Of a stretch of DNA of 64,000 bases, positions 4,108 to 53,399 are shown in pieces. Position numbers and translations under genes: made by a program. The DNA comes from Patescibacteria group bacterium. Lineage in GTDB: Bacteria > Patescibacteriota > Microgenomatia > UBA1406. The stretch is taken from the NCBI GenBank assembly GCA_041665145.1, contig JBAYJK010000002.1:232339-296338 (forward strand), in the 5' to 3' direction. Below the pieces are notes generated by a model. The model was not told the origin of the DNA. It did not search any database and was given only the letters and a program-made list of their open reading frames with translations. Numbering within the stretch: the first letter of the stretch is position 1; the number at the start of each line of letters is the position of its first letter.

Positions 4108-4115
4108 AAAAAATA

Positions 4116-4124
4116 ATTATAGCA
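4116..4124 (-). promoter_or_regulatory. extended -10 box TGCTATAAT 8 nt upstream of the leuS ATG
   Basis: The minus strand reads aaaaTGCTATAATtattttttATG, with no SD-like purine run. Confidence 0.5.
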
Positions 4125-4171
4125 TTTTACCTTATACTTTCTACTTTCAGTTCTACTTTGTGCTTTTTACT

Positions 4172-4450
4172 TTAAGCTTTCTGCTTCTCTTCTCTCGGTT
4201 TCGCTTCAGTGACCAAAATATTGCGCTCAGTTTCGCCTATTTTCATCGGCTTTCCATTCAGAACTGCAATAGCCTGCTCCGCGAGCTCGGGGGTACTCAT
4301 AGTCACAAAAGCAAACCCTCTCGATTTACCCGAATCACGATACCGAACCAAATTTATCTCGTCAACTTCACCCACCGTCATAAAGACTGTTTTAATATCA
4401 TCTTCTACAGCCCCATACGGAAGATTCCCGACAAATAATCTATTTCCCAT
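4172..4450 (-). CDS. RRM-type RNA-binding protein
   Basis: RNP-2 (LFVGNLPY) and RNP-1 (SRGFAFVTM) motifs are present. I prefer the start at MGNRLFVGNL (4450); the ORF track start is 4459. The 5' end overlaps the stop of the upstream gene. Confidence 0.88.
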   Translation of the reverse strand: MGNRLFVGNLPYGAVEDDIKTVFMTVGEVDEINLVRYRDSGKSRGFAFVTMSTPELAEQAIAVLNGKPMKIGETERNILVTEAKPREEKQKA

Positions 4451-5474: not shown

Positions 5475-5533
5475 GTCAGTTTGACTATTAACTCTAAACT
5501 ATCAACTCTCAACCCTCAACTATTAACTATCAA

Positions 5534-6295: not shown

Positions 6296-6391
6296 GAATT
6301 AAGTATCCGCCCTGCCAACTACTATCTACCATCTACTAACCACTATCAACCATTTACTATCTACTCTAAACTAGAGACTATCAACCCTTAA

Positions 6392-9410: not shown

Positions 9411-9524
9411 ACTTCCAGTTTTCAATTTACAATTTTCAATCAATTTTTAAGGTTCAGTTTTTAACTGTAACTTCCCGGTATTGAAAACTGAATGAAAATT
9501 GAGAACTATAAATTGAAAATTGAG
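9411..9524. terminator. composite palindrome between convergent comEC-MBL and PaaX-like genes
   Basis: cagttttcaat (9415) and caattttcaat (9431) can pair in nested fashion with attgaaaactg (9479) and attgaaaattg (9512). Confidence 0.45.
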
Positions 9525-31200: not shown

Positions 31201-33469
31201 CAGTTATTCCGCCGACCCTATTCGAATCGGCAGGCTTGCGTATTGCTGCACAACTAATCATGATTTGACCGGCTCTGTCGACGAAGTCAAAATCTATGAT
31301 TATGCGCGTTCGTCGAAACAGATAATCGAAGATATGAATGCTGGCCATCCCGCCGGCGGGTCCCCTGTCGGGAGTCAAGCCCTATATTGGAAGCTCGATG
31401 AAGGGATAGATGATACTGCCCATAGCTCCGGTGCGACAACGGTTGATGGTACGCTTACTTGTACGGGAGGAACGTGTACAAATCCCACATGGACCAATAA
31501 CGGAAAATTCGGCAAAGCCGTGACTTTTTCTTCTTCAGGAACTGATCGGGCATACATTACTGCAGCCACAGTCAGCCCAGTGAATTTACCTGTCGCAGTA
31601 GGATCAAAAATAACTATTTCGACGTGGATGAATCCTCTCGCAACACAATCAGGTGGGGGTTGGTATGTACGTAATGGGACCGGTGTAGATGAAAACTATG
31701 CGCTACACCTATCTAATTCACCCACAAACGGGAATTACCCTGTCAGTATGGAATACTATGACGGAACATGGAGAAGTATCAGCACAACCGGTCAACATGT
31801 TCCCCAGGCAGTTTGGTCGCACGTTACGGTAGTATTGTCTCAGGGACAGTGGATGAAAGTATATGTGAATGGTGTGTTCAAAGAACAGGTTACCTGGGTT
31901 GGCTCACCTTCCGTACTTTCAACGTCGTCATTCAACATCGGTGGTCATGCAGGAACAACCGGTCAGTATTTTAACGGATCGCTCGACGAATTTAAGGTGT
32001 ATGGAACAGAGTTGACTGCCGACGAAATTAAACTGGATTATAACCGCGGGCAGACTATGGTTTTAGGCTCTGCATCAGTTAATTCTTCTGGTGTTGTCGA
32101 CAATTCTTCAGCCGGACAATACTGTGTGCCAGGAGACGCAACTTCCTGCCTTGGTCCTGTTGGTGAGTGGAATTTTGAGGAAGGTTCGGGAACAACGGCG
32201 AATGATTCCAGCGAAAATGACAATGTCGGCAATTTCACCAGTTCGCCGGTTCCTTCGTGGACAATTGGAAAAATAGGTAAATCTTTGCGATACAATACGG
32301 GGGGATACCTCTCGGTCACCGATGCCGCTCCCCTCCAGACAACTGCGGCAGTTACCCTTGAGGCCTGGGTGAATTTTGCCAACATTACGAGTTTTATGGG
32401 AATTACGGGTAAAGAGAAAACAGGAACGCCGGGAGCGCTGGCATATGGGATGCGAATGAATAATGTCGGAACCGTATTTGGCGACTTTTACATAAGTGGC
32501 GTACGCAAGACTTTCGGCACATTTACCGCTGCACCAAATACATGGTATCACGTGACCGTAACGTTTGACGGGACTAACTTGGCGCTTTACAAAAACGGCC
32601 AACTCTCCGGCAGTGTAATGAATGCTCCCGGAACAATTGATTCTACGGTTGGCGTACCGTTACTCATCGGAAGAGACGGCGGGTATGGTTCATTTACCGG
32701 CCATATTGATCAAGTTCGCATATTTAACTACGCCCGTACTCCTGCACAAATTGCTTGGGATTACAATCAGGGTAAACCAGCCGTTCAATGGAAATTCGAC
32801 GAATGCCAAGGTACTACGGCAAATGATTCGAGCGGAAACGGAAATACAGGAACCATCACGATCGGTGCAACAGTCCCTCAGTCTTCTGCCGGAACATGCA
32901 CGGATGGATTGGGAACTTCTGCGTGGAATAACGGTGCAACAGGAAAATATAATTCAAGTTTGCGGTTTGACGGCGTGGATGATTATATGTCAAAACCTAT
33001 GACCGTCTCTGCTTCAAATGGAACCATTTCATTCTGGATTAAAGATTTTGCGATCGGGGTGGGCACGTATCTCTTCAGATCAGATGCAAATGTCCGTACC
33101 TATATCGGAGCAAACAGCAGTACGATTTACTTTTTCAAAGGCAATCCGGCAGTCGTAGTTCCCACTACCCCTGCCCTCACGGTAGGCAGTTGGAACCATA
33201 TCGTATTACGGTGGTGGACAACGGGAGGGGTGCAGTATGCAGAAGCTTATGCGAACGGAAAATCTACAGGGGCTCCCGTAACGTTTCTCGACTCAACCGT
33301 CGGCACATATGTTACCGTCGGCGGATTCGGACCGACAGGTACGCAAAATGCCGCAGGACAGTTTGATGATATACAAGTGTTTAACTACGCGCTGACCACG
33401 CAACAAATAAAGAATCTGTATAACCAAAATTCCGCAATACGTTTTGGTCCAGCAAGTGGAATGCCGTAG
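28226..33469 (+). CDS. 1747-aa membrane-anchored DUF2341 + 6x LamG (concanavalin A-like lectin) repeat protein
   Basis: N-terminal TM (FLLVLILFIATTLIYV) followed by a DUF2341-like start (WQYRQTFTATN…GNDIRIV…IWFEATIPANTSAVYYIYYGN). Six modules follow. Each opens with (V/G)YWKFDEGTG-type motifs and closes with IDE(V/A)(K/R)(I/V)Y…A..(Q/E)I motifs. Confidence 0.85.
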   Translation: MKALKKARVQFLLVLILFIATTLIYVKLQPKKSAEAAWYNDSWQYRQTFTATNGSAYSATNVPYRLIFDTASPIAANKMLASGNDIRIVNSKGAVVRFQVEQSTLNTTQTGIWFEATIPANTSAVYYIYYGNNQASAPSFTSDVSTVSGSGTTVEMKDGSGYTTSTNGGQVSDIRKNGTNLGVNGNAHHTTSYPGNWWDDRPFTQTLLASGPLFVEVKYTDSTYGSYSDFGTNIKMFKNNFAEVRVYMTYNTAGSEQLYYYLNFDNGTRNSVWVNGSEVVVDQAPDSGGLTQASLGDSWFGQRWTGTGVYGGTIIRKNNSDWTSGFTSAQSSYYQTNYSNNSAYTNGSSREIRYGIFAGDGGLSEMTQKGSSYGDQTTTINGSEEKSVAPVAYWKFDEGTGGNAHDSTANKNDGTTGGTWTNEDQCINGKCLYFNGTDVSVPDTNSTLDLTSKMSFSFWWRPMSQHTGYAYQLLSKWSTTTDANLAFYFFGDYNGTLPANKGLMRIYATAGGTWKVISGSYFVTDADLGKWMHVSFNYDTATGGQLYINGSPVGVRTGSGDLTTNNLPFRIGGYIPKAYFDEVKIYGYERTATQIKTDYQLRGSSKSTSVAMGSSKSNNDAFSNGLVGYWKMDENTGTTVADTSGNGGTMTFTGNAPSWVVGKYGSAIRYNGTNSLATVPNSTPLNITGNAITLSAWVYLTAYPASYGVIYQKDGYADGYRMMIASTGQIYSDMKASERSMSSTGTVPLNTWTLVNVTYDGAKMYTYINGASAGSLSVTPGNLTGTTASISFGLTEYPPITGSIDEARVYNRALSASEVSSLYNFAPGPVGYWNFDAKTGATVADLSGNNNVGAFIDSPSWTVGKYGGGLKLDGSNDGIQIAQSNSMKPAKKFTVSAWINIPSYRAAGEYGPIIEGAGNLNSWTGYYLGFDTSANLWFYAGNGTAWTNTSTPQASIPLNSWHYVTGVVDDSTISIYVDGILKSTSAHTLTAISYSADPIRIGRLAYCCTTNHDLTGSVDEVKIYDYARSSKQIIEDMNAGHPAGGSPVGSQALYWKLDEGIDDTAHSSGATTVDGTLTCTGGTCTNPTWTNNGKFGKAVTFSSSGTDRAYITAATVSPVNLPVAVGSKITISTWMNPLATQSGGGWYVRNGTGVDENYALHLSNSPTNGNYPVSMEYYDGTWRSISTTGQHVPQAVWSHVTVVLSQGQWMKVYVNGVFKEQVTWVGSPSVLSTSSFNIGGHAGTTGQYFNGSLDEFKVYGTELTADEIKLDYNRGQTMVLGSASVNSSGVVDNSSAGQYCVPGDATSCLGPVGEWNFEEGSGTTANDSSENDNVGNFTSSPVPSWTIGKIGKSLRYNTGGYLSVTDAAPLQTTAAVTLEAWVNFANITSFMGITGKEKTGTPGALAYGMRMNNVGTVFGDFYISGVRKTFGTFTAAPNTWYHVTVTFDGTNLALYKNGQLSGSVMNAPGTIDSTVGVPLLIGRDGGYGSFTGHIDQVRIFNYARTPAQIAWDYNQGKPAVQWKFDECQGTTANDSSGNGNTGTITIGATVPQSSAGTCTDGLGTSAWNNGATGKYNSSLRFDGVDDYMSKPMTVSASNGTISFWIKDFAIGVGTYLFRSDANVRTYIGANSSTIYFFKGNPAVVVPTTPALTVGSWNHIVLRWWTTGGVQYAEAYANGKSTGAPVTFLDSTVGTYVTVGGFGPTGTQNAAGQFDDIQVFNYALTTQQIKNLYNQNSAIRFGPASGMP

Positions 33470-33472
33470 TTT

Positions 33473-33500
33473 GTAAGGGCGCGGCGTGACGCGCCCGTCT
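33473..33500. repeat. REP-like hairpin R1 just after the LamG stop
   Basis: GTAA-GGGCGCG-gcgtga-CGCGCCC-GTCT, a 7-bp GC stem with a 6-nt loop. It lies 4 nt after the stop at 33469 and upstream of the rayT-like ATG at 33510. Confidence 0.6.
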
Positions 33501-33509
33501 TGCACAAAT

Positions 33510-34163
33510 ATGCATAACCGTCAATCAATCAGATTGAAAAATTACGATTATTCGCAATCAGGTTTGTATTTTATAACCATATGCACACAAAACAGAGAAA
33601 ATATATTTGGCAACATTGTAGGGGCGGACCCACGTGTCCGCCCGATATCAAACCCATGTGTCCGCCCAATATTAAAACCTGTCCGCCCAACATCAAATGC
33701 ACACATCGACACAATACGTATGACATTAAATAAATACGGGAATATTGTTGAAAAATGGTTAAATAAAATTCCTCATAAATTCCATGTTGTTATGGATAAA
33801 TGCCAAATTATGCCCAATCATATTCATATGATAATCAATATTATTTCTGACGATGGTTTGATCCAGAATTTATATTCAGGGCAGACACAAGGGTCTGCCC
33901 CTACATCAACGCCACCCACAACAATCGGCACAATAATCCAATGGTTCAAAACCATGGTAACGAATGAATATATCCAAAATGTACATAATAAGAATTGGAA
34001 ACCATTTGAAGGACGGTTGTTTCAACGCAATTATTATGAACACATTATCCGTTCTGATAATGATTTATGCAAAACACGCGAATACATCATGAATAATCCT
34101 GCCTTATGGTACCGTGATCGAAATAATCCAGAAAAAACAAACAACAATATTCTGTTACAATAA
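33510..34163 (+). CDS. IS200/IS605-family Y1 HUH transposase-like protein, RayT (REP-associated tyrosine transposase) type
   Basis: N-terminus RLKNYDYSQSGLYFITICTQNRENIFG, the HUH motif as HIHMI, and a catalytic-Tyr region QRNYYEHIIRSDNDL…YIMNNPALW. I prefer the ATG at 33510 to the track's GTG at 33486. No terminal inverted repeats or tnpB partner were seen. Confidence 0.8.
   Translation: MHNRQSIRLKNYDYSQSGLYFITICTQNRENIFGNIVGADPRVRPISNPCVRPILKPVRPTSNAHIDTIRMTLNKYGNIVEKWLNKIPHKFHVVMDKCQIMPNHIHMIINIISDDGLIQNLYSGQTQGSAPTSTPPTTIGTIIQWFKTMVTNEYIQNVHNKNWKPFEGRLFQRNYYEHIIRSDNDLCKTREYIMNNPALWYRDRNNPEKTNNNILLQ
33618..33690 (+). repeat. REP-like hairpin R2 plus two extra tandem half-sites, translated inside rayT
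   Basis: GTAG-GGGCGGAC-ccacgt-GTCCGCCC (33618-33643). GTGTCCGCCC recurs at 33658-33667 and GTCCGCCC at 33681-33688, about 23 nt apart. The region encodes VGADPRVRPISNPCVRPILKPVRP. Confidence 0.7.
33879..33904 (-). repeat. REP-like hairpin R3 translated inside rayT
   Basis: GGGCAGAC-acaagg-GTCTGCCC-CTAC, which puts GTAG on the minus strand. It encodes GQTQGSAPT. Confidence 0.65.
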
Positions 34164-37627: not shown

Positions 37628-37630
37628 AAT

Positions 37631-37753
37631 ACAGTTCTTATTTCTTAGTTCACAGTTCTCAAAGATTTCTCAAGTGACAGTTCTTAAGCAATTTGTTTGA
37701 TAATTAAGAATTGAGAACTCTTTAAGAACTGAAAAGTGTGAACTAAAAACTGT
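37631..37753. terminator. long imperfect palindrome between convergent genes
   Basis: The left arm acagttcttatttcttagttcacagttctcaaag pairs (with bulges) with ctttaagaactgaaaagtgtgaactaaaaactgt. It is built from GTTCT/AGAAC words and lies between the stops at 37627 (+) and 37757 (-). Confidence 0.45.
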
Positions 37754-37756
37754 ATG

Positions 37757-40879: not shown

Positions 40880-41506
40880 ATGAATATAAAACCGCTTATT
40901 TTATTTGACCTGGACTGGACTCTGATTAATGTTTCAAAACTCAAACAAGCTTTGTACGTTCTCCTTGCCGCCGTTTGCAAAACCGAAGCAAGCAAGATAG
41001 AAAAAGAGTTCGAGCAGTACATCTCCACCTTGGTAAGCAGAACAGATTTTAGTGTCGAGGAGTTAACGGAACACTTAACCCGGAAATACCAAGTACCGCA
41101 GAGTGCAATTCTTACAGCAATCACCGGTACTAAACAAATTTATTCCTCATCACTTTATCCAGAAGTAGCTGCTACAGTTGAAAAACTATCATCAAAATAT
41201 ACGTTGGGAATTTTTTCTGAAGGGACATCTTTGTGGCAAAAAACAAAAGTCACCCTCTCAGAGTTGCTGCCATTTCTTAATAAAGACCGAATCTATATTT
41301 TCAGACGTAAATGCGATTCGGTTTCACTTCAACAAATACCTGACAATGCATTTGTCGTCGACGATAAGATAGCAGTCTGTGAGACGCTACAAAGCAAAAC
41401 CGCACTCACCCCCATCTGGCTCAATAGAAAATCAGAAGAAAGTTCTTCGACTATTAAGACCATTCACAACTTGTCTGAGCTTACTGTAATCCTGCAATCC
41501 GAGTAA
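40880..41506 (+). CDS. HAD-superfamily hydrolase
   Basis: Motif I DxDxT is present as FDLDWTLI, with a cap region and later GIFSEG/DD motifs. The 3' end overlaps convergent gdh by 26 nt. Confidence 0.7.
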   Translation: MNIKPLILFDLDWTLINVSKLKQALYVLLAAVCKTEASKIEKEFEQYISTLVSRTDFSVEELTEHLTRKYQVPQSAILTAITGTKQIYSSSLYPEVAATVEKLSSKYTLGIFSEGTSLWQKTKVTLSELLPFLNKDRIYIFRRKCDSVSLQQIPDNAFVVDDKIAVCETLQSKTALTPIWLNRKSEESSSTIKTIHNLSELTVILQSE

Positions 41507-42812
41507 GAGCAACAGCAAAAGCCCCTTCTTTCATGTTTATTTTGAGGGTTTTTGATTTGTTCCATACCGCCTCAAACGCCAGTTGGAGTTGTCTTTCGAG
41601 CTTATCATTCACTTCTTTCTCGCTCCACCAATAACCGGCAAGACCCTGCACCCATTCAAAGTATGAAACAGTCACTCCCCCGCTGTTTGCCAGAATATCG
41701 GGGACGACAATAATTCCCATTTTATCGAGAATCGGATATGCGTCTTCTGCAATAGGACCGTTTGCCATTTCGATAATAATTTTCGCTTTGATTTTTCCGG
41801 CGTTTTCAGCAGTTATGACGTTCTCAAGCGCGGCAGGCACCAATATGTCTACCGGAAGTTCCAAAAGTTCTTCCTGACTAACTGTCCTCCCGTATTTGAT
41901 GTCGCAGACGGTGCCCTTGCAATAACACCCGGCAACACTTCCTTTTTTCTTTTTACAATCAAGTGTTGAGGCAACGCTCAGACCTTCTTTAACATAGACA
42001 CCTCCCTTGGAGTCAGATACGGCAACTACGGAAAAACCTTCTTCTTCGGCAATTTTGGCAAAATAGTAGCCGACATTACCGAATCCCTGGACCGCAATCG
42101 ATGGCGATTGCGGAATCTCGAATCTCGAATCTCGAATCTCGAAATTTCCTTTTTTTTGGGATTTTGTATTTGTTTCGGATTTCGGATTTCGGATTTCGGA
42201 TTTTAACTTTGAAAGTAACGCTTTCAAGACCATTACGCCGCCGCGTCCGGTTGCTTCGGTTCTTCCCAAGGATCCACCAAGCGCCACCGGCTTACCGGTG
42301 AATGTAGCGGGACTTTTTGCTCCCACGGCTTTTTCGTATTCATCGAGCATCCACAGCATTATCTGACCGTTGGTATTTACATCCGGTGCCGGGACATCCG
42401 TCCACGGTCCTATATATGAAGCGATTGCCCGTCCATAGGTGCGGGACAGAGATTCCAATTCTTCAACCGTCAATTCTTTGGGGTCAACAATAATCCCGCC
42501 TTTAGCACCTCCATAGGGCAATCCAGCAACTGCGCATTTTAAGCTCATGAGTGTGGAAAGCGCCATCACCTCTTCACGGCTTACATTCTGATGAAATCGA
42601 ATTCCACCTTTGTACGGTCCGAGCGTATTGCTATGTTGGCTTCGAAATCCTTGAAACGTTTTGATTGTGCCGTTTTTCATCTTAACGGGAAGCTTTACCT
42701 CAATAACCCGGTCAGGCTGCACGAGTTTTTCGGTAAGATCTTCCGCAAGACCGATTTTTTTGGCAGTTTTTCTAATAAGACCCTGAGCCGTTTCAAGCAT
42801 TTGATTGGACAT
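41481..42812 (-). CDS. gdh: glutamate dehydrogenase with ~27-aa in-frame insertion
   Basis: Catalytic region PYGGAKGGIIVDP and the Rossmann motif QGFGNVG. The insertion KSEIRNPKSETNTKSQKKGNFEIRDSRFEIPQS lies immediately N-terminal to QGFGNVG. Confidence 0.93.
   Translation of the reverse strand: MSNQMLETAQGLIRKTAKKIGLAEDLTEKLVQPDRVIEVKLPVKMKNGTIKTFQGFRSQHSNTLGPYKGGIRFHQNVSREEVMALSTLMSLKCAVAGLPYGGAKGGIIVDPKELTVEELESLSRTYGRAIASYIGPWTDVPAPDVNTNGQIMLWMLDEYEKAVGAKSPATFTGKPVALGGSLGRTEATGRGGVMVLKALLSKLKSEIRNPKSETNTKSQKKGNFEIRDSRFEIPQSPSIAVQGFGNVGYYFAKIAEEEGFSVVAVSDSKGGVYVKEGLSVASTLDCKKKKGSVAGCYCKGTVCDIKYGRTVSQEELLELPVDILVPAALENVITAENAGKIKAKIIIEMANGPIAEDAYPILDKMGIIVVPDILANSGGVTVSYFEWVQGLAGYWWSEKEVNDKLERQLQLAFEAVWNKSKTLKINMKEGAFAVALTRIAGLQ
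42113..42210 (-). repeat. ~98-nt imperfect-palindromic element inserted in frame in gdh
   Basis: 4x GAATCTC (42113-42140), a 32-nt spacer, then 4x TTTCGGA (42173-42200) and ttttaacttt. It is homologous along its whole length to 43251-43352 in trxB. Confidence 0.85.
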
Positions 42813-42836: not shown

Positions 42837-42960
42837 AAGTTGTAACTTGTAAGTTGCAAGTTGTATTAAAGTCGTAATGATTAAGTTGTAAGTTTTAACC
42901 AGTCGTTTCAACTTACAACTTCAAGCTTTATTACAACTTACACCTTACGACTTTCAACTT
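42837..42960. repeat. ~124-nt intercistronic palindromic repeat, copy A (trxB-gdh spacer)
   Basis: Words AAGTTGTAA/TTACAACTT form two imperfect arms. It is about 93% identical (9 differences by eye) to 43997-44119. Its last 23 nt supply the trxB C-terminal codons EVESRKV and the stop. Confidence 0.85.
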
Positions 42961-43990
42961 CATCTAAATATTTCTCAATTTCTAATTCTGCTGCAACTCC
43001 CATTCCTGCAGCTGTCGCTGCTTGCCGGTAGACATGATCAACGCAGTCTCCTGCAGCAAATATTCCATCTACCGAGGTCGCATACTGAAACTTTTTGTCA
43101 AATTTTTCCCGTGATACACCCTCCGGTAATTCAAATGCAACCCTGGCGCCTGTATATATGTATTGCTTCGGATCAAGAAGCACACCCGAGCCCTCAAGAA
43201 ATTTAGTTGCCGGCGTATGACCAATAGCCACAAATACTCCGTCCAAGGGTAAATCTCGAAGCTCGAAGCTCGAATTTCGAAGTTGTTTTAGATCTTCGGA
43301 TTTTAGTGCTTGTTTCGGATTTCGGTTTTCGGATTTCGGAATTTTTAACTTTATTCCCGTTACTTTCTCTTCTCCGACTATTTCCAAAACCTCAGCGTTA
43401 AGAATAACTTCTATCTTCGGATGTTTTAATACTCTCTCCTGCATAATTTTTGATGCCCGAAAACTGTCCCTTCGATGAATTACATAGACTTTTGTCGCAA
43501 AACGTGTGAGTACCAATGCATCCTCCATGGCGGAATCGCCACCACCCAGAACCGCGACCACTTTATTTCTGAAGAAAAATCCATCGCACGTCGCACATGC
43601 CGAGACTCCTTTGCCTCGAAGTTTCTGCTCGGACGGTAACCCGAGCCATCGGGCATCTGCACCTGTCGCAACCAAAATAACCCGTGCAGAATACATCGTA
43701 CCACTGCTTACTATAACATTTTTGGCTCTTTTGTCTGACTCAATCTTTTGTACAGAATCGGAAATAAACCGCGTTCCAAATCGCTCTGCCTGTAATTTCA
43801 TTTCCTGGACAAGCTCAGGTCCAAGTATCCCTTTCGAGAAACCCGGATAGTTTTCTACATCTGAAGTAAGTGTTAATTGCCCTCCAGGAACAGAGCCTTC
43901 AATAACTAACGGTTTTAAATTTGCGCGGGCTGCATATGTTGCTGCCGCAAGTCCTGCCGGTCCTCCGCCGATGATGATAAGGTTTTCCAT
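42938..43990 (-). CDS. trxB: thioredoxin-disulfide reductase with ~22-aa in-frame insertion
   Basis: GGGPAG FAD motif, redox-active CATC, the GGGDSA NADPH motif and GVFVAIGHTP. The insertion PKSENRNPKQALKSEDLKQLRNSSFE lies between VTGIKLK and LPLDGVFVAIGH. Confidence 0.95.
   Translation of the reverse strand: MENLIIIGGGPAGLAAATYAARANLKPLVIEGSVPGGQLTLTSDVENYPGFSKGILGPELVQEMKLQAERFGTRFISDSVQKIESDKRAKNVIVSSGTMYSARVILVATGADARWLGLPSEQKLRGKGVSACATCDGFFFRNKVVAVLGGGDSAMEDALVLTRFATKVYVIHRRDSFRASKIMQERVLKHPKIEVILNAEVLEIVGEEKVTGIKLKIPKSENRNPKQALKSEDLKQLRNSSFELRDLPLDGVFVAIGHTPATKFLEGSGVLLDPKQYIYTGARVAFELPEGVSREKFDKKFQYATSVDGIFAAGDCVDHVYRQAATAAGMGVAAELEIEKYLDEVESRKV
43251..43352 (-). repeat. ~100-nt imperfect-palindromic element inserted in frame in trxB
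   Basis: aatctcgaagctcgaagctcgaatttcgaag … TTTCGGA/TTTCGGT/TTTCGGA/TTTCGGA (43313-43340) … tttttaacttt. It has the same orientation and the same end sequences as the gdh element. Confidence 0.85.
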
Positions 43991-43996
43991 GCTTTA

Positions 43997-44119
43997 AAGT
44001 TATAACTTGTAAGTCGTAAGTTGTATTAAAGTCGTAATAATTAAGTTGTAGTTTTAATCAGCTGTTTCAACTTACAACTTCAAACTTTATTACAACTTAC
44101 ACCTTACGACTTTCAACTT
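43997..44119. repeat. ~123-nt intercistronic palindromic repeat, copy B (csoR-like-trxB spacer)
   Basis: Direct repeat of 42837-42960. It starts 7 nt after the trxB ATG position and ends at the stop of the CsoR-like gene. Confidence 0.85.
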
Positions 44120-44363
44120 ATATTCGTGATATTTCTTTTAACACTGCTTCCAATTTTTCCTTATGCTCAGGCATAAGATTACACACCTCGCCTTTTGCAA
44201 TTTCAAGTCCTAAATTATTGACCGCCGCTTTTATGGCACCTATCTGGAGCAATACAGCAGTACAATCACGCTTGCCTTCAAGCATTTTTTGAATACCTTT
44301 TAACTGTCCGATGATCTTATTTATCCGTTGAATATGTATAGTGCTCTCATTTAAATCTTTCAT
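44118..44363 (-). CDS. CsoR/RcnR/FrmR-family (DUF156) metal- or thiol-responsive repressor
   Basis: 81 aa with the family pattern IQRINKIIGQLKGIQKMLEGKRDCTAVLLQIGAIKAAV. There are only two Cys (C34, C61) and no His at the usual Cu(I) ligand spacing. Confidence 0.75.
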   Translation of the reverse strand: MKDLNESTIHIQRINKIIGQLKGIQKMLEGKRDCTAVLLQIGAIKAAVNNLGLEIAKGEVCNLMPEHKEKLEAVLKEISRI

Positions 44364-44418: not shown

Positions 44419-44441
44419 ATACCCCTACCCCCTAAGGGTAT
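44419..44441. promoter_or_regulatory. candidate operator for the CsoR-like repressor
   Basis: ATACCC-N11-GGGTAT inverted repeat with a C5/G5 tract (minus strand ATACCCTTAGGGGGTAGGGGTAT). It lies 56-78 nt upstream of the repressor ATG. An adjacent small hairpin CCCGAC-ttt-GTCGGG sits at 44402-44416. Confidence 0.45.
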
Positions 44442-44771: not shown

Positions 44772-46190
44772 ATGGTCAGATCAAAAACTGCTCCTGCAGA
44801 GCCTGCTAAAGAAGAGATGCTCGACGTCTCTACCCTTATTAACACGCCCGAGGACAAACGTATTGTGGCAGAACCAGAAGTTAAGAGTCCAGAGTTAATG
44901 GTTAATAGTTCAAGAGTTAATGAGACACCGAGTGTAGCTGAGGGACAACAAACTCCCAGTTCCAAACTACCCGCTTCGCAGCGAGGCGAGCCAACTACTA
45001 ATTACCAATCACCAGCTGCTCGACCGACAGGACCGGATGAAGGTATGTTTGAACGGCGCATTCAAGACGATCTTCGAAGCGCTTTTGAAGTTAAAGGATT
45101 TTTGGATATCGTAAATACAACATATGGATTTTTGCGACCGGGCTTTGCCCCATCAAGTGACGATATCTACGTTTCCATGTCACAGATCCGCAAATTTCAG
45201 CTTCGCCAAGGTGATCAGGTAGTCGGGCTCGCTCGACCACCGAAGCAAAACGAGAAATATCATGGTCTTTTGAAAATTACAAAAATAAATGATCTTCCCC
45301 TGCAAGGCGATACTATTAAACGTCGTAAATATGAGGAACTTACTCCTATTTACCCAGACAGACAGATTACGCTTGAGTATGATACAAAAATCGTGTCTAC
45401 CCGTATTATTGACCTTCTCTCTCCTATTGGTTATGGTCAACGAGGCATGATCGTATCTCCTCCAAAAGCAGGAAAGACAACCTTTTTGAAAGAAATTGCA
45501 CAAGGTGTGATCACCAACAACCCGAACTCGCACCTTATTGCCATTCTTATCGGCGAGCGACCTGAGGAAGTAACCGATATGAAACGAAACATAAAAGGTG
45601 AAGTGGTTGCTTCGAATTTTGACGAGTCGCCTGAACATCAAATCGCTGTTGCTGAACTCGGTTTGGCACGAGCGAAACGGTTGGTTGAAATAGGAAAAGA
45701 TGTTGTTATTTTGCTTGACTCAATAACACGTCTTGCCCGAGCATACAATCTTTCCGTTGGTCCGTCTGGTAAGACCTTGTCCGGAGGATTTGACCCGGCA
45801 GCACTCTTCCCCGCCAAAAAGTTCTTAGGAGCAGCGAGAAACTGTGAAGAAGGCGGTAGTTTGACCATCATTGGTACTGCGCTTATCGAAACAGGTTCGC
45901 GCATGGATGATCTTATCTACGAAGAATTCAAGGGTACCGGCAACATGGAGGTACATCTTGAAAGAAAACTTGCCGAAAAACGCATTTATCCGGCAATCAA
46001 TATAGAAAGATCAGGCACACGACATGACGAGTTGTTGCAAAACGACGAATTGTTTAAGAAAATTACAACACTTCGACACATGTTGCTGCTTCTCGACGAA
46101 GAACAGCGTTTAGTATCACTTATCGACAAGCTCGGCAAGTCTAAGACTAACAAAGACTTCCTTGAGACGCTGAATATGGCGAAAAAGTAA
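44772..46190 (+). CDS. rho: transcription termination factor Rho with non-canonical N-terminal extension
   Basis: CSD-like RNA-binding region (GFLDIV…YGFLRP…DDIYVSMSQIRKFQLRQGD), Walker A PPKAGKT, and Q/R-loop regions. The first ~100 aa are Pro/Glu/Ser-rich rather than a Rho_N helix bundle. Confidence 0.96.
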   Translation: MVRSKTAPAEPAKEEMLDVSTLINTPEDKRIVAEPEVKSPELMVNSSRVNETPSVAEGQQTPSSKLPASQRGEPTTNYQSPAARPTGPDEGMFERRIQDDLRSAFEVKGFLDIVNTTYGFLRPGFAPSSDDIYVSMSQIRKFQLRQGDQVVGLARPPKQNEKYHGLLKITKINDLPLQGDTIKRRKYEELTPIYPDRQITLEYDTKIVSTRIIDLLSPIGYGQRGMIVSPPKAGKTTFLKEIAQGVITNNPNSHLIAILIGERPEEVTDMKRNIKGEVVASNFDESPEHQIAVAELGLARAKRLVEIGKDVVILLDSITRLARAYNLSVGPSGKTLSGGFDPAALFPAKKFLGAARNCEEGGSLTIIGTALIETGSRMDDLIYEEFKGTGNMEVHLERKLAEKRIYPAINIERSGTRHDELLQNDELFKKITTLRHMLLLLDEEQRLVSLIDKLGKSKTNKDFLETLNMAKK

Positions 46191-46266
46191 ATTTAAGCTT
46201 AAATATTAAAGCTTAAAGATTAATTGAAGCCTAAACCTTAAAGCTTGAAGTTTCCTTGTTGCTTTG
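46191..46266. terminator. AAGCTT-word palindromic spacer between convergent rho and the SpoU gene
   Basis: tttaagcttaaa (46193-46204) is a perfect 12-nt palindrome. Further TTAAAGCTT words follow, with AAGCTT cores at 46196, 46210 and 46242. Confidence 0.4.
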
Positions 46267-46839
46267 CTATTTGTCCTCTAAGCTTAGAGTTCTCCGTATT
46301 TCATAGAGTGCTATTCCCGTGGATACAACCACATTGAGGGATTTGTTGATACCGTACATCGGAAGTTCGACAACAATGTCCGCAAGCTCTATCACCTCTT
46401 GCTTGACACCAAAGGTTTCATTGCCGGATATCAATGCGATATTTTGTTGTACGGGCAAGGCATGCCTTGCCCCTACGTTCCCCATTCTCATCCCTAATTC
46501 ATCAATTGAAATCGATTTCTCGTTCTGTTCCAGCACAATAATCGTATAACCTTCGACTTTCAGACTTTTGACAAGTGCCAGAATGTCTTGTTTGTATTCC
46601 CACGGAATATAGTTCACCAGCCCGACCGAGGCACGGACTATTTTCGGATCAGGCGGTACGGGAGTTTGTCCGCAATGATAGACTTTGGTCACCCCCGCCG
46701 CATCGGAAACCCGATACATACCACCCACATTGAATGTGTCGTACACATCGTCAAGAATGAGTATAAAATTACCGTTTTCTTTTGGAGTGCTCGGACTTTT
46801 TTGTATGTCCCCTTTTCTGAGAGATCGTGCAAACGCCAT
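46267..46839 (-). CDS. SpoU/TrmH-family RNA 2'-O-methyltransferase carrying an in-frame REP hairpin
   Basis: Motifs LILDDVYDTFNVGGMYRVSDAAGV and LISGNETFGV…ELPMYGINKSLNVVVSTGIALYE. The insertion reads MGNVGARHALPVQQN. Confidence 0.88.
   Translation of the reverse strand: MAFARSLRKGDIQKSPSTPKENGNFILILDDVYDTFNVGGMYRVSDAAGVTKVYHCGQTPVPPDPKIVRASVGLVNYIPWEYKQDILALVKSLKVEGYTIIVLEQNEKSISIDELGMRMGNVGARHALPVQQNIALISGNETFGVKQEVIELADIVVELPMYGINKSLNVVVSTGIALYEIRRTLSLEDK
46449..46476 (-). repeat. REP-like hairpin R4 inside the SpoU methyltransferase gene
   Basis: GTAC-GGGCAAGGCATGCCTTGCCC-CTAC, with a perfect 20-nt palindrome at 46453-46472. The minus strand reads GTAGGGGCAAGGCATGCCTTGCCCGTAC and encodes VGARHALPV. 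Confidence 0.8.
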
Positions 46840-47383
46840 GATTTAATTGTAAACTGAAAACTGTAAACTGAAAATTACTTATCGCATAGGCGATAAGTAT
46901 CCCTATTATAGCACCCGCAAGCACATCCCCTGCATAATGTACCCCCAAATACAGGCGCGAGAATGATATCAGGCCGGCTAATGTATAAAATAGCGCTTTC
47001 TTCTTCCTATGGTAGAAAGTTAACAACGTAGCAGCAAAAAAGGATGTTGCCGCGTGGGTTGAAGGAAACGAATAATCCGCGGGTTTGGCAATCGCATTCG
47101 CAAAAGACGGACGGGAACGATGAACAACCGGTTTAATAACAAAACTGGTGAGTACCGCAGTGACAATCAAGCCACCCAGGAAAAACAGGACAAACTCATG
47201 ATGCTTTTTTTCTTCAATGACAATAAGTATTATTCCCAACACTATCCAGATAACAGAAAATGATCCTACGGCAGAAAAGAACATAAAAAAAAGATTAGTT
47301 ATATAGGCGTGAGGTAAAAGATTATAAAGAAATTGAGTAATTAACTGATCAAGAATAAGCATAATACAACCATTGACTATCAA
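46769..47383 (-). CDS. PAP2-family phosphatase (undecaprenyl-diphosphatase/lipid phosphatase-like)
   Basis: PAP2 motifs RSRPS, FPSTHAA and SRLYLGVHYAGDV. The last ~35 codons read through a word-repeat spacer and overlap the SpoU gene start by 71 nt. Confidence 0.85.
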   Translation of the reverse strand: MIVNGCIMLILDQLITQFLYNLLPHAYITNLFFMFFSAVGSFSVIWIVLGIILIVIEEKKHHEFVLFFLGGLIVTAVLTSFVIKPVVHRSRPSFANAIAKPADYSFPSTHAATSFFAATLLTFYHRKKKALFYTLAGLISFSRLYLGVHYAGDVLAGAIIGILIAYAISNFQFTVFSLQLNHGVCTISQKRGHTKKSEHSKRKR

Positions 47384-47401
47384 CTAGTGACTATTAACTA
47401 T

Positions 47402-50400
47402 TCACGACTGGTTCTTCGAATCATCCATCTTCATTTCCTGCACCGGGAGCTCTGCTGTTACCGCCGGTTCTTTAGCTGTCGCCGGCAATTCTACATACTC
47501 GATTGCTTTTTCTTCAAGCATTTTCTTGAGTTCTTCCTCTTTCAAGAGGGCTTCACTTACTTCCTGAGCAGCTGCAAGCTTGGCTTTCAAGTACATGGCA
47601 ATGTCCTGAATAGTCATATCGGTCAACATAAAGAACGGAATAATATCGGAGACGGCAGTAAGTCCTTGCGCTTTAATTTCTTCGTTTGCTGACACGAGCT
47701 TGTTCAAGACGTTGGTGAGTATTACCGCATCCCGTTGTACCCAGACAATGCGAGAAGTTATTTCTTTGGTAAATGGTACTTCTCCATTTGTATAGTGTTC
47801 TATCCACATGCGTTTGAGCTCTTCATATTCGTCAATACCCATAGTTTTGGGTGTCGCGATCATTTTTCCAGAATCAAGTATTTTTGACCTCAAATTCACT
47901 CCCTTATCGAGCGGTTTCTTTCCGCGATCGGCCAGCGCAGCCGGTCGAAGTGCTTGTTGCACGAGCTGTTGTGTTTCCTTAACAGTTGTTTTCTCATTAG
48001 TTTTCTCTGTAAGCTTCTCCAGCATTCTTTCAACAGTTTCTTTAGTGGTTTCTGTTGCTTTTACGAGCGTTGAGATTACGTTTGCCGGCTGCTGTGTTGT
48101 GACGACCTGTGGAATTTTTTGTATAACCGCCTGTATAACATCCGCTTTCATTCCCGATGCTTGTGCAATGCTTTCCACAGCCACCTGGTCCACGGCAACG
48201 GCGGCAAGAGCCGATTGTAATGTTTGCACCAGTCCTTCGGGCTTCTGGTGCGTTTCTGCAGCTATGGACTGCAAGGTGGTTACCCCCGCCGCTTCGGTGA
48301 GCGTTGAATTTACTTTTTCAATTACATCCTTCACTATATCTGTTGTTGTGTTTTGAGATGTCGCAATACCGGTAAGAACTTCTTTGGAAAGTGCGCTTTC
48401 CGTTATTTTTTTAACAACTTGGGTAACCGTTTCTTTTTCTATATTGGTCTTCTCGGAAAGCACAGTCAGCATGTCTCGGGGTGTTGTTGTCGCACTGACC
48501 TCTGATAATGTCGTAAGAATACGTGCAACATCCGGTGTCGAGACATGTGTGATCTCAGACACTCTGGACAACAGTTGTTGATCGTTAGAGACACCCGTTG
48601 TCCATAGGTCCAGAATTTTTTGCACGTTGGAAACGGTAGATTTGGTTTCGGTTGAAACTGCGTCTGTCGTATTCATCAGCGACAATTCCTGATGAGATAA
48701 CTGTTGGATTTTTTCCTGGACAGCCTCGGTTGACTTATTGACCAATTGCTTATATTCCTGTGCAGACTGAGTGTTGGATTGCTCAGCCTTAACGATTGTT
48801 GTTTGTGCGCGGGCAATATCTGAAAGCTTTTGAATTTGGATATCCATGCGTTTCAAAATACTTTCGAATTCCTGCCTGTTGATGCCTTGATTTATAACAA
48901 CGGTTTTTGCTGACATGCCTGCAAATGACGAAACGTCAGCGGGCGAAGTAACTTCGCCCCTACTTGTGTTTTCATTGAATTGCGATTCTTGACTCGCGAC
49001 TCGCGACTCGCGACTCTTGGTCTGGACGTCTTCGATTTCCTGTTCGAGTTGCATTGTTTGCTCTTTAACCCCCTCGGCTTGCTGTTCTACATCCACAAAC
49101 TGTTCCTCGACTTTGTTACCCATTGCCTGCTGAACTTCTTCAACCGCCCCCATCTTGTTCTGGATTTCTTGTGCAGCAGAAACCTTCGCCTTCAAATATG
49201 CTGCGATATCCTGCATACTCATATTACCGAGCATGAAGAATGGAATAACATCGGCAACTTCTTGCAATCCTTCGGCACGAACTTCTTCGTTATCGGAAAT
49301 GAGCTTGTTAAGCGTATTGTTTAACGAGACCACATCTTTCTCAACCCAATCTTTACGCGTTTTAATTGTGTCACTGAGTGGTATCTCTCCCTTTTCATAA
49401 TGGTCGGTCCACATCTTCTTAACTTCCTCGTATTCATCTATCGACATTGTCTGTGGCCGAGCGATAAGCTCTGCGGGAGCGCTTACTTTCTGTGTAGCCG
49501 GCTTAGACAGCACTTCTTGTGCCACTTTCTTGACCTGATCGATATTGGTTTTTGTTTGCGATGCAATTCGTTCTGCTACCGCTGTTGTCTGTACATGCTC
49601 GGCAGCTTTTGTAAGAATTGTTGTTGCTTTGTCTGTAGTGATTCCTGCCGTTTGTGCTACCGATTTGATAACCTCCGACTGCTTCGACTCCTCGACCGCT
49701 TTCGGTATTGATTGCAACACTTGTGACGTTTGAGAATCCGAAACATGTGCATTATTGGCAATGTTGTTAACAACCTTCTTGTCACCTACAACGTCGTTTA
49801 CCATGGATTGCGTGATGTTTTTGACCTCGTTCTGGGATATGTTCACGTGTTGTGAAATATTCTGAATATTCGTTACCGTTTGTGCCTTATTCTGGGCAAA
49901 TTGCTGAATCGCCTGACGCACGCTTGTTGCCGTACTTGTTGTCGCATTGAGGAATTGTTGTGCATTCACATCACCCTTAACTGCCCGTTCGGACATTTCG
50001 GTCTTCAGTTTAATAAATTGAGACCGTTCTTCCTTACTTTCAGCTGCCATCGGATTGCGCATCTTTTCCATAAACTCACGCACGTATTCTTTTCGGTCTG
50101 TCTTTGTTTCAAACCGGGCAATATCCGAAAGCTTTTCGATCTGGACATCCATACGCCGAGTAATCTCGGACACATCCATTTGTTTCATATTTTGCATGTT
50201 TTCGATTGCCGATGTGGCACGCATACCTTGTGAGACTGCCTGCTCGTGCGGTATCTGCATTTTCTGTGAGAAGGATTGTTTTGGAATATTCGCAGGTCCT
50301 ATCGGTCCCGGTGTTGGTCCGTGACTCTGTTGTTCCAACATGTTTAAGAGTATGTTTTTCATGGCGTAAATACCTTCGCAACAATAATCTCTGAATATTC

Positions 50401-51475: not shown

Positions 51476-51502
51476 ACATAATTTTCAGTATGAAGTCATG
51501 AA

Positions 51503-51591
51503 GTCATTGCGAGCGCAGCGAAGCAATCCAGAATAAGTACAAGAATAATTACGAGATTGCTTCGGCCGGTTCTATCGAGCCTCGCAATGAC
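51503..51591. repeat. nested inverted repeat between argS and the VirB6-like gene
   Basis: GTCATTGCGAG (51503-51513) pairs with CTCGCAATGAC (51581-51591). The inner CGAAGCAATC (51519-51528) pairs with GATTGCTTCG (51555-51564). Confidence 0.75.
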
Positions 51592-51596
51592 AATTT

Positions 51597-53399
51597 TTAC
51601 ATTCTTTCGACAGTCCGGATTCCCAAAAGATACAAGCCATTTTTGAGAACTTGTGAGACTGCTTGAGTAAGATTTATACGAAGTTCCATTTGCTCCCCAC
51701 TTAATATGGAATGTTTGTTGTAAAACGTATTAAACGTCTGGGCAAGTTCGTTTAAATATACCGCAACAAAATGAGGGTCATAACTCTTTGTCGCTGTTTC
51801 AACAACTTCAGGAAATTTGGCAAGAGCTTTAAGGATAGCGAGTTCTTCGTTGTTGTATTCGTATGCATGTGTCGCGGGTCTCGCGTCTTGGGTCTCGCGT
51901 CTTGGTTCCTTAGACTCGTGACTCGTGACTCGTGACTCAGGACTCTTTCTTAACACACTCTTACATCGTGCGTAGGTATATTGCAAATACGGACCAGAAT
52001 CTCCGCTCATTGAAACGCTTGAGGTAATATCAAATGCTAAGTATTTAAATGCACTCATTTTAAGAAACGAATACTTGACTGCTGCTAATGCGATCGCATC
52101 AACATCACTTTCTGGTAAAACTGATTTATTCTCCACAATTACCTTGGCAATTGCTTTGTGTGCTTCATCGAGAATCAACTCTGCTGTAACCACCTGACCT
52201 TTTCGTGAAGACATTTTCCCGCTTTTCAAACCGACAAACTCATATGCGTTGTGGTATTGCTTTCCCTTGAACAATTCCGGGTTCAAAAGCTCTTCAACTT
52301 TGAAGGTTACCTCGAAAAAACTTTTTTGCTCTACCGCGACGTTATGAACACACAAATCTATGTGGCCAAAGTCTTTAAACTCCATTTGTGCAAGACCAAG
52401 TTCTTTACCCTCGTACGTCGGCAGCCCTTCACTGTTAAGAAAAACCCTCGTATCGAGTTTATACGGCTCGCCGTTAAAAATAATCGCTCCCTTACTTTTG
52501 ACAAGAATTCCTTTTTTAATAGCTTCTTCGTTTTGTACTTTGGCAACTTCCAATGTTTCGCTTTCAAGATATTCCCGCTCGAAATGACTATCAAGACGAT
52601 CATAAATTTGGTGAAACTTTTCCAAACTCCACTTTACTCCGAGCTTCCACAATTCATGAACCTCTCCTTCCTTTTCCGTATATATCTTCTTGTTAACTTC
52701 GATGATTTCTTTTTTATTTTCCTCACTTTCTTCAAAGGCTTTTGCCCCCTCAACATAACATTCGGATAATAATTTGACACGTGCATCGGGCGAATCAAGA
52801 TTCGCCCCTACAACGTCCCCGTTTCGAATTTCGAATTTCGAATTTCGAATTTTCTTTTGCAACGCCCACACACATTTGGCAACATGCATTCCAACGTCAC
52901 CCTGGTAGTTCGTCCGTATGACTGTGGCTCCCGATGCCTCTAGAAGTCTGGCAATGGACACTCCTAAACAAAAATTTCTCAAATGTCCAATATGCATGAC
53001 TTTAAACGGGTTCGGATGCCCGTATTCGACCATAATTTTCTTATTCTTCAGCTCGGAATTCTGCCCATAGTTATCATTCTGAGCAAGAACCTCCTGTACA
53101 ACCTTGCTGTACGCTTCAGGCTTCAGGAAGAAATTTATGTATCCCGGCTTTGCTACCTCCACTCGAGCTACATGAAGGGTTGAACCCTTCATGCCATTAG
53201 AAAAAGATAGGTTTAGCTTGTCAACAAGAGCTGCAGCGAGTTGCATTGGATTCGTCTTGACGTGACGGGCTAAAATCATGGCAATATTCGTCGAATAATC
53301 TCCGTGAGCAACTTCAGGAGACACAAAGACCTCTATTAAAGAATGAAATTCTGCATCAACAACCTGTTTTAATAGATCAATTATCTGCTGTTTGAACAT
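51597..53399 (-). CDS. argS: arginyl-tRNA synthetase with three in-frame repeat insertions
   Basis: 600 aa with the HIGH motif as MHIGH and the KMSKS-equivalent GKMSSRKG. The N-terminal Arg_tRNA_synt_N-like region and a C-terminal DALR-like anticodon-binding region ending in M are present. Confidence 0.94.
   Translation of the reverse strand: MFKQQIIDLLKQVVDAEFHSLIEVFVSPEVAHGDYSTNIAMILARHVKTNPMQLAAALVDKLNLSFSNGMKGSTLHVARVEVAKPGYINFFLKPEAYSKVVQEVLAQNDNYGQNSELKNKKIMVEYGHPNPFKVMHIGHLRNFCLGVSIARLLEASGATVIRTNYQGDVGMHVAKCVWALQKKIRNSKFEIRNGDVVGANLDSPDARVKLLSECYVEGAKAFEESEENKKEIIEVNKKIYTEKEGEVHELWKLGVKWSLEKFHQIYDRLDSHFEREYLESETLEVAKVQNEEAIKKGILVKSKGAIIFNGEPYKLDTRVFLNSEGLPTYEGKELGLAQMEFKDFGHIDLCVHNVAVEQKSFFEVTFKVEELLNPELFKGKQYHNAYEFVGLKSGKMSSRKGQVVTAELILDEAHKAIAKVIVENKSVLPESDVDAIALAAVKYSFLKMSAFKYLAFDITSSVSMSGDSGPYLQYTYARCKSVLRKSPESRVTSHESKEPRRETQDARPATHAYEYNNEELAILKALAKFPEVVETATKSYDPHFVAVYLNELAQTFNTFYNKHSILSGEQMELRINLTQAVSQVLKNGLYLLGIRTVERM
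51877..51946 (-). repeat. tandem arrays inside argS: 14-mer x2 + heptamer x5
   Basis: GTCTCGCGTCTTGG at 51877-51890 and 51891-51904. GACTCGT x3 (51912-51932) is followed by GACTCAG and GACTCTT. The region encodes KSPESRVTSHESKEPRRETQDARP. Confidence 0.85.
52788..52811 (-). repeat. REP-like hairpin R5 inside argS
   Basis: GGGCGAATC-aa-GATTCGCCC-CTAC. The minus strand reads GTAGGGGCGAATCTTGATTCGCCC and encodes VGANLDSP. Confidence 0.8.
52822..52849 (-). repeat. heptamer array TTTCGAA x4 inside argS
   Basis: Four perfect copies, one substitution away from the TTTCGGA arrays in gdh and trxB. It encodes IRNSKFEIRN and lies 10 nt from REP R5. Confidence 0.85.

Follow-up and report, generated by a model that had tools for sequence, protein, structure and literature searches.

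In a 64,000-nt stretch of the genome of a Patescibacteria group bacterium (contig JBAYJK010000002.1; the window, in all that follows), the gene for thioredoxin-disulfide reductase (trxB) lies between two closely similar palindromic repeats, copies A and B, which raises the question of what these sequences are, and of how they came to occupy both spacers of the csoR-trxB-gdh locus. [quoted passage not shown]

Structure of the two copies

The locus consists of three genes on the minus strand. The first, upstream of copy B, encodes an 81-aa metal-sensitive repressor of the CsoR/RcnR family (44118..44363; Pfam Trns_repr_metal, E 2.5e-16), the second is trxB (42938..43990; 350 aa), which is identified by Pfam (Pyr_redox_2, E 3e-45), by the alignment of homologs and by a structure model, and the third, downstream of copy A, is gdh (41481..42812), which encodes a Glu/Leu/Phe/Val dehydrogenase (GDH) of 443 aa (Pfam ELFV_dehydrog and ELFV_dehydrog_N). 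The host is a Microgenomates-like metagenome-assembled genome (MAG) of the Patescibacteria, and the nearest named TrxB homologs are those of Roizmanbacteria.

Copy A (42837..42960, minus strand) lies in the trxB-gdh spacer and is an imperfect palindrome of 124 nt, built of AAGTTGT/ACAACTT heptamers in degenerate form, while copy B (43997..44119, minus strand) is an imperfect palindrome of 123 nt, which fills the csoR-trxB spacer. The two are direct repeats, 1160 nt apart, with an identity of 92.7% (eight mismatches and a single one-nt gap), and the last 35 nt of their shared end are strictly identical, with one mismatch in the last 56 nt. Of the 22 matches to AAGTTGTAAGTTG found in the window, with up to two mismatches, 16 lie within the two copies, where chance alone would give 2.7. 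Each copy folds, on either strand, into one long imperfect hairpin, with an energy of -45.7 (A) and -40.9 (B) kcal/mol in the mRNA sense (z -7.2 and -6.9), and of -41.1 and -35.0 kcal/mol in the antisense (z -7.1 and -6.4). The GC content is low, at 0.31 in A and 0.28 in B. The preliminary description of this locus, as palindromic direct repeats of ~93% identity around trxB, is thus confirmed, although its length of 124 nt is right for A and not for B, and its estimate of ~50 identical final nucleotides was slightly generous.

The junctions with the genes are equally precise. Copy A overlaps trxB by 23 nt (20 coding nt and the stop), and these first 23 nt, in the mRNA sense, represent the last seven codons and the stop of the gene, which gives TrxB the end ...D-EVESRKV*, as had been described. 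Copy B, which had been said to end exactly at the stop of the repressor gene, overlaps it by 2 nt, beginning at the second nucleotide of the TAA, and ends 6 nt before the ATG of trxB. The reading frame of the two copies relative to the upstream gene is identical (T|AA at csoR, G|AA at trxB). The boundaries of the repeated unit are the boundaries of the palindrome itself (AAGTT...AACTT), and the flanks are unrelated, and this precise coincidence of the ends of the repeat with those of the palindrome favors an element-like unit. The copies are not an artefact of assembly, given that three independent assemblies (ENA, JGI, and Logan) agree across the locus, with 0-1 mismatch over 21 kb.

Gain of the copies and families of the relatives

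The gene order rho / csoR-trxB-gdh / LysM-peptidase is kept in five relatives (L004, L005, L014, L016, and L020), and the comparison of synteny, which had been proposed as a check, reveals sites for A and B that are short or overlapping in two of them. In L005, in which TrxB is 76% identical and ends in EKYLEK*, csoR and trxB are separated by 14 nt, and trxB and gdh by 25 nt, while L020 (GDH 74% identical) has a csoR-trxB spacer of 60 nt, an overlap of 4 nt between trxB and gdh, and only one array of heptamers over 21 kb. Given that both sites are empty or short in these syntenic genomes, A and B represent gains in the lineage of the window, and the earlier proposal of a duplicative or recombination-type DNA event is upheld as regards the duplication. 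In relation to L005, copy A maps between …AAGT and AATTAGTA…, where it replaces the last codon or two of trxB. The closest relative, L004 (TrxB 87% identical), was not recovered by the search for GDH homologs, so that the gain of A is dated no more finely than this.

At the position of B, L004 carries a heptamer palindrome of 133 nt. The global identity of B with this spacer is 0.62, within the shuffled background (0.56 +/- 0.04), and eight 'compensatory' pairs obtained with RNAalifold were set aside for this reason, which leaves the two spacers equivalent in position and not demonstrably homologous.

Other relatives have families of their own, which have been copied two to five times across the csoR-trxB-gdh locus, both in the spacers and in frame within the genes. 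A single family of L014, with members of about 110-130 nt, has one copy in the spacer between rho and csoR, two in trxB, and one in gdh, and partial copies are found at distances of up to 9 kb. In L016, the region immediately upstream of csoR holds a heptamer palindrome of 134 nt, which an in-frame trxB copy matches at 85.8% identity, and a second palindromic family has three in-frame copies in gdh and one in a spacer. The identity among the family members of a given genome, that of the window included, is 0.69-0.93, compared with 0.43-0.68 between genomes, orthologous sites included, which is the level of the shuffled background given above.

The flanks of 14 copies, among them A, B, and 10 in the relatives, contain no direct repeat longer than 2 nt that would represent a target-site duplication. 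A preference for AAGT(T) as the target site was also considered, given its presence at all four junctions in the window, and was rejected, because conserved K-L-K codons explain the in-frame sites and the motif is absent in L014 and L016.

Heptamer arrays across the window

The preliminary description missed the main point about A and B, which is that they are one family among many heptamer-built elements, some of them in frame in gdh, trxB, and argS. The window contains 13 strong regions of period 7, compared with 0-2 for each of the remaining periods between 4 and 12, and 17 arrays of period 7 at a looser threshold, compared with 0.05 in shuffled sequences. The identity of the intergenic DNA at lags of 7, 14, and 21 nt is 0.34, 0.33, and 0.32, over a baseline of about 0.27, while the coding DNA is flat; the intergenic set is slightly too large, in that the 332-nt 'spacer' at 4108-4439 includes a called gene for a 92-aa RRM_1 protein. 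This gene, for an RNA-binding protein, is placed by the L022 annotation at 4170-4450 of the window, on the minus strand.

Five spacers, of 114-129 nt, fold at z <= -3.4 (A, B, 9411-9524, 37628-37756, and 51476-51596), and inverted heptamer arrays with differing units form all of these except the last. The hairpin at 9411..9524, of TTTTCAA/TTGAAAA heptamers (minimum free energy -33.7, z -5.4), and that at 37628..37756, of AGTTCTT/AAGAACT heptamers (-39.7, z -5.1), belong to the same class as A and B, and each fills the spacer of a pair of convergent genes. The members of this class are about 95-135 nt long and AT-rich, with arms of degenerate tandem heptamers, and are found both in this genome and in its relatives, each of which has its own family or families. 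Within the window, almost every locus has its own heptamer unit.

An open reading frame (ORF) of 253 aa with no Pfam match (5534-6295) has inverted CTCAACT/ACTATCA arrays on either side, ~700 nt apart (5497-5536 and 6205-6238), and the same family of units is found again at 6319-6365 and 47368-47402.

In-frame elements

A second family lies in frame in gdh and trxB, and has the general form (AAATCCG)n, loop, (TTCGAGN)n in the mRNA sense. The trxB element (43248..43352, minus strand), in which the second arm is (TTCGAGC)n, encodes IPKSENRNPKQALKSEDLKQLRNSSFELRD, and the gdh element (42106..42214, minus strand), composed of (AAATCCG)4, a loop, and (AGATTCG)4, encodes KSEIRNPKSETNTKSQKKGNFEIRDSRFEIPQS; the two are 82.5% identical over 103 nt. 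They are separated by 1138 nt, which is almost equal to the 1160 nt between A and B. A segmental duplication of 1.15 kb was nevertheless rejected, because this spacing is due to the conserved geometry of the genes (the trxB and gdh insert sites are 1115 nt apart in L014).

Three further in-frame heptamer blocks are known from the window, one in an ORF of 1357 aa and two in argS. Of the latter, an (AAATTCG)4 array (52816..52858, minus strand) encodes KKIRNSKFEIRN and lies 10 nt from an in-frame GTAG-tagged, GC-rich hairpin (52788-52811), while a block of GTCTCGC/GACTCGT units (51871..51947, minus strand) encodes SPESRVTSHESKEPRRETQD. Given that 7 is not a multiple of 3, a translated array cycles the heptamer unit through all three frames.

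In the AlphaFold2 model of TrxB (mean pLDDT 82.6), the insert forms a disordered loop between two beta-strands, with a pLDDT below 50 at residues 222-238, and the TrxB of L005 has no in-frame insert. A search with the insert peptides against 5.8 billion proteins returned no candidates, a result that is uninformative on their spread to other protein families. At the trxB insert site of L004 (1320-1400), an (AATATCG)n array with a GC-rich loop is found, after which the contig enters the C-terminus of a Peptidase_M24 gene, probably through a chimeric short-read join at a heptamer array that is repeated elsewhere in the L004 genome.

The gdh site is occupied in different ways in the different genomes. 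The L020 protein contains KLKSKIRNPKSET, derived from (AAATCCG)4, exactly where the window has KLKSEIRNPKSET followed by the loop and the second arm, so that L020 has the one arm only, while L014 and L016 have other elements at this site; the GDH of L014 and that of the window both contain NPKS…IPQxP(S/T)IAVQG. At its right end (42100-42125, codons PQSPSIAV), the gdh element of the window forms a perfect 9-bp inverted repeat with the native codons, CCGCAATCG-CCAT-CGATTGCGG, which looks like the signature of a strand switch (template switch), and the equivalent position in L014 has CCGCA...TGCGG.

Proposed origin and spread of the palindromes

The overall picture suggested by these sequences is one of turnover at the level of the unit, through slippage, combined with the short-range copying or conversion of whole elements. 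The heptamer arms would arise and turn over through replication slippage, and whole palindromes, as hairpin units, would be copied to nearby sites, through template switching during replication or through an enzyme of the HUH/Y1 type that is specific for hairpins. Selection would then act as a filter on their persistence, with the stop-bearing families, such as that of A and B, being retained at gene boundaries alone, to which they may contribute a few codons and a stop, and the stop-free families persisting in surface loops. The confinement of the AAGTTGT family to gene ends, where it provides the stop of trxB, would follow from the presence of TAA in its family of units.

The sole candidate for a hairpin-mobilising enzyme in the window is the ORF of a RAYT-like Y1 (HUH) transposase (33486..34163, plus strand), 9 kb from A and B. 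It matches Pfam PF01797 (Y1_Tnp) with 28.4 bits, over a cut-off of 23, and its best match is the REP-associated tyrosine transposase NF047646 of NCBIfam, with 58.9 bits, below the 80-bit cut-off. Each of these matches is split into two stretches.

A number of observations weigh against the interpretation of A and B as members of a mobile class. The Y1 ORF is flanked and interrupted by GC-rich GTAG hairpins, and not by heptamer palindromes, and no insertion sequence or transposase with ends matching those of A and B was found in the window. The A/B family has two copies in ~74 kb of the source genome (the window and a 10-kb extension, which added none), so that its mobility rests on a single duplication. 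A 21-mer from the stretch that is identical in A and B recovered no copy of the family from the GTDB species genomes or the JGI metagenomes, neither of which includes the source genome, and its eight matches are all due to chance or to unrelated heptamer arrays. The in-frame elements of gdh and trxB barely fold (z -1.1 and -0.2), and several heptamer arrays are not hairpins (5475-5533, 6296-6391, and 46191-46266, for example), and for these reasons the heptamer class may be a mixture of slippage-generated arrays and true elements. The excess of arrays that are stop-free on both strands within genes (8 of 12, compared with none of the 14 intergenic arrays; random expectation 0.42, Fisher p = 3e-4) fits such a filter, but is partly circular, given that the calling of the ORFs defines what is intergenic. 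Finally, the orthologous insert sites of trxB and gdh could represent ancient inserts that evolve in place, rather than repeated copying, and some inserts are indeed old, given that the (AAATCCG)4 arm is common to L020 at the same gdh site.

As the 21-mer scan matched unrelated bacteria, heptamer arrays of similar units exist far outside the Patescibacteria. Arrays of the CTTACAA/CTTACGA type are found in L006, L009, L012, and L013, for example in a Lewinellaceae MAG with 54% GC, and some of them adjoin complementary arrays.

Alternative explanations

The alternative that survives best, although it remains doubtful, is that the hairpins are not elements at all, having originated in place through slippage and strand-switch inverted duplication, with pairs such as A and B being produced by ectopic gene conversion or template switching, in the absence of any dedicated mobility. 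The diversity of the families, with nearly every locus having its own heptamer unit, favors such an origin, and the gdh site provides two points in its favor, in the one-armed (AAATCCG)4 of L020, compared with the two arms of the window, and in the inverted copy of the adjoining native codons at the right end of the element. In addition, copies lie close together, at about 0.2-3 kb, and are direct repeats of one another, the paralogues are more alike than the orthologues, which is consistent with concerted evolution, and the excess of heptameric simple sequence repeats (SSRs) in other bacteria has been ascribed to polymerase slippage (PMC4692102). The duplicated units nevertheless stop exactly at the palindrome boundaries, next to unrelated flanks, where microhomology-mediated template switching would often carry part of the donor flank, and the sites of A, of the second and third gdh copies of L016, and of the second trxB copy of L014 are all new, with no resident element available for conversion. 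The partial copies of L014, up to 9 kb away, also extend beyond the local range.

The local duplication of element-like palindromes remains the preferred reading, and a bolder version of it may be advanced only tentatively. This would see the heptamer palindromes as previously undescribed, self-propagating elements of this Patescibacteria lineage, which enter gene boundaries and permissive protein loops as exact hairpin copies, with no target duplication, are homogenised within each genome, so that paralogues resemble one another more than orthologues do, and act as a major source of the lineage-specific insertions in the housekeeping proteins of the Candidate Phyla Radiation (CPR), driven by either a hairpin-specific HUH/Y1 (RAYT-like) enzyme or a form of template switching peculiar to these genomes.

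It is unlikely that A and B are, instead, intercistronic RNA elements under selection (3'-end protectors, RNase III sites, or partial terminators), which tune or uncouple csoR, trxB, and gdh, and whose duplication and structure reflect this function. The setting is compatible with a role in the RNA. Upstream of the csoR-like gene, a pseudo-palindrome read from the sequence, ATACCCCTACCCCCTAAGGGTAT (44419..44441), resembles a CsoR operator, and what is known of such operators suggests that it is a putative one; its ATACCC...GGGTAT form is also present in L004 (about 205-235) and L005 (about 730-755), and is replaced by TATACTGGTATATAGTAT in L014 and L016. This conserved operator-like palindrome, together with the very short spacers of the relatives, suggests that csoR-trxB-gdh forms a single, autoregulated transcription unit, within which A and B would probably be co-transcribed and fold into stems of about 45-50 bp.

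A number of further features could be read as signs of selection on the transcript. The mRNA-sense hairpins are strong, and better than the antisense by 4-6 kcal/mol. The counts of G:U pairs are equal on the two strands. In the pairing register of A, three of the five differences in the stem are wobble-compatible transitions, and the density of substitutions is 5% at paired positions, compared with 14% at unpaired positions, a contrast that is non-significant with only nine differences, in a structure blurred by pairing registers shifted by 7 nt. Where genes converge, hairpins of this class occupy precisely the interval from one stop codon to the other. A weak promoter-like sequence, TTGCAA-16-TATTAT, at the 3' end of A faces gdh, and the Correia and ERIC elements act on mRNA through RNase III or RNase E (PMC10969869). 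An intrinsic (Rho-independent) terminator was rejected, given that A and B have no GC-rich stem with a U-tract, nor any other terminator-like signature, while canonical GC-rich terminators with T6 exist elsewhere in the genome, such as GGGGCGAACC-GAAA-GGTTCGCCCC followed by T6 near the window. No Rfam family matches A or B. A required function is unlikely, because the syntenic relatives have, at both sites, spacers no longer than 60 nt or genes that overlap, and because the sequence at these positions is not conserved between genomes. A role at the RNA level is plausible all the same, and by analogy with Correia and ERIC, A and B could be targets of RNase III or RNase E, or protectors of 3' ends; any effect on the processing or stability of the RNA is probably a by-product, as in those elements, and not the reason for their existence.

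The weakest alternative, which is very improbable, is that the repeats are the substrates or footprints of the excision, duplication, or mobilisation of trxB, by deletion and circle formation or as an integron-like cassette with attC-like sites: direct repeats of 124 nt with a 35-nt identical stretch do bracket exactly one gene, attC sites such as the Vibrio cholerae repeats are akin to A and B in size and imperfect-palindrome form, and a 1183-nt Logan contig holds just trxB bounded by the repeat, but no RYYYAAC / GTTRRRY core site exists on either strand of A or B or in their 10-nt flanks, no integron integrase (IntI) lies nearby (a Phage_int_SAM fragment of 165 aa, at a distance of 28 kb, is the sole feature related to one), the Logan contigs (1183, 2160, and 1855 nt) simply terminate within the 35 nt that A and B have in common, as expected of a de Bruijn graph with k=31, a single arrangement is found in ENA, JGI, and two Logan samples, and five relatives keep the order csoR-trxB-gdh, whether they carry repeats or not, so that the earlier suggestion of an excisable or duplicable trxB finds no support and the gene cassette is rejected.

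Other features of the window

The GC-rich hairpins around the Y1 ORF are part of a separate repeat population. Within the ORF, the in-frame interruptions are formed by hairpins of the GTAG-GGGCGGAC...GTCCGCCC type and by a 24-nt x3 tandem repeat, and a similar hairpin, GTAAGGGCGCG...CGCGCCC, is found at its 5' edge; the positions of these features are 33473-33500, 33618-33645, 33628-33697, and 33881-33904. Hairpins of the GTAGGGGCG type have four exact 9-mers in the window (2391-2399, 46468-46476, 48955-48963, and 52788-52811), compared with about 0.5 expected, and another hairpin of this population is at 11975-12010 of L022. Hairpins of this type lie in frame in the genes for LeuRS, a SpoU methylase, the 1357-aa ORF, and ArgS, where they encode peptides such as VVGANLDSPDA, and one copy between genes, with T6 after it, resembles a canonical terminator.

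Two giant ORFs, both of which probably encode surface proteins, precede the Y1 ORF. The first (15373-28221; 4282 aa) contains internal repeats of ~270-610 nt with 67-85% identity, and the second (28226-33469; 1747 aa) has DUF2341 and Laminin_G_3 domains. The rho gene (44772-46190) has an N-terminal extension of ~100 aa, which includes a 22-nt x2 tandem repeat at 44880-44922, while the Rho proteins of the relatives are 436-472 aa long.

Significance and comparison with known systems

The Patescibacteria have tiny genomes, which are thought to be under strong streamlining, and yet repeats of ~100-130 nt are found at many gene boundaries, and in loops of the essential enzymes TrxB, GDH, and ArgS, that are missing in close relatives. 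At the csoR-trxB-gdh locus, A and B change the C-terminus of trxB and break the tight coupling of a conserved operon. If the propagation of such elements is real, it would account for some of the puzzling insertions in CPR proteins, and would provide a natural system in which to study the origin and spread of palindromes where no classical transposase is at work. The elements would then also be practical markers, as short-read assemblies break at them and close lineages differ in them. The literature, the coverage of which was incomplete, yielded no account of palindromes built of heptamers, or of in-frame copies of them, in the Patescibacteria.

Of the traits of MITEs, A and B have terminal inverted repeats, in that the whole element is a palindrome (AAGTT...AACTT), and sites that are filled or empty among the relatives, while the target-site duplication is absent.

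The preliminary description compared the copies with the repetitive extragenic palindromic (REP) elements and BIMEs. This holds in the broad sense of REP- or MITE-like intercistronic palindromes inside a probable csoR-trxB-gdh operon, one of which has remodelled the 3' end of a gene, and the lack of a target-site duplication and a candidate hairpin-based mechanism are further points in common; the window also has a RAYT-like Y1 gene and GC-rich GTAG hairpins. Membership was rejected, however, given that A and B, at 124 and 123 nt, are three to five times longer than these elements (about 20-40 nt and GC-rich), have a GC content of 0.31 and 0.28, and carry no tag, while the GTAG hairpins are a population apart. 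One end of a REP element bears a conserved tetranucleotide, GTAG or CGTC (PMC3733652), and A and B have neither of these at their termini, on either strand; B contains one internal GTAG, which was created by its 1-nt deletion.

The ERIC and Correia (NEMIS) elements are imperfect palindromes of about 125-155 nt in transcribed intergenic regions and operons, which fold in the mRNA and can change its stability, by way of RNase III or RNase E, or act as a source of promoters (PMC10969869), and A and B are like them in size, in form, and in their location within a probable operon. Unlike them, A and B have no target-site duplication, possess a heptamer substructure, and number two copies in ~74 kb. 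Membership in the ERIC family was rejected, since a distant blastn search with A found no match in 5,426 E. coli genomes, nor in plasmids.

The tandem heptamers themselves recall the STRR sequences of cyanobacteria, which have the consensus units CCCCAGT, TTGGTCA, and CAACAGT. None of these units has a counterpart among the consensus units found by Tandem Repeats Finder in the window. Heptameric SSRs in general (Xanthomonas GGGAATC, Nostoc GGGGA(C/T)T, and the cyanobacterial STRR) show an intergenic excess, occasional inverted pairs, and rapid divergence between relatives, and an origin by slippage has been proposed for them (PMC4692102). The resemblance lies in the tandem 7-nt units, which are enriched in intergenic DNA and sometimes form inverted pairs capable of folding into stem-loops. 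Here, in contrast, discrete palindromes of ~120 nt are copied as units, lie in frame in essential genes, are AT-rich, and are built of many different units, rather than one G-rich unit.

A further comparison is that with the RPEs of Rickettsia, palindromic repeats of ~100-150 bp, in several families, which are inserted in frame in unrelated housekeeping genes of a small-genome bacterium, at positions where the protein structure tolerates them (PMC10969869). The palindromes described here differ from these in their phylum, in their tandem-heptamer arms, in their genome-specific, low-copy families, in the location of the copies within a few kb of one another, and in the intergenic position of A and B. 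The parallel extends to several copies of palindromes of ~100-150 bp, to sister families in frame in TrxB, GDH, and ArgS, to a TrxB insert that forms a disordered surface loop, and, in part, to copy A itself, which fuses seven codons and a stop onto TrxB.

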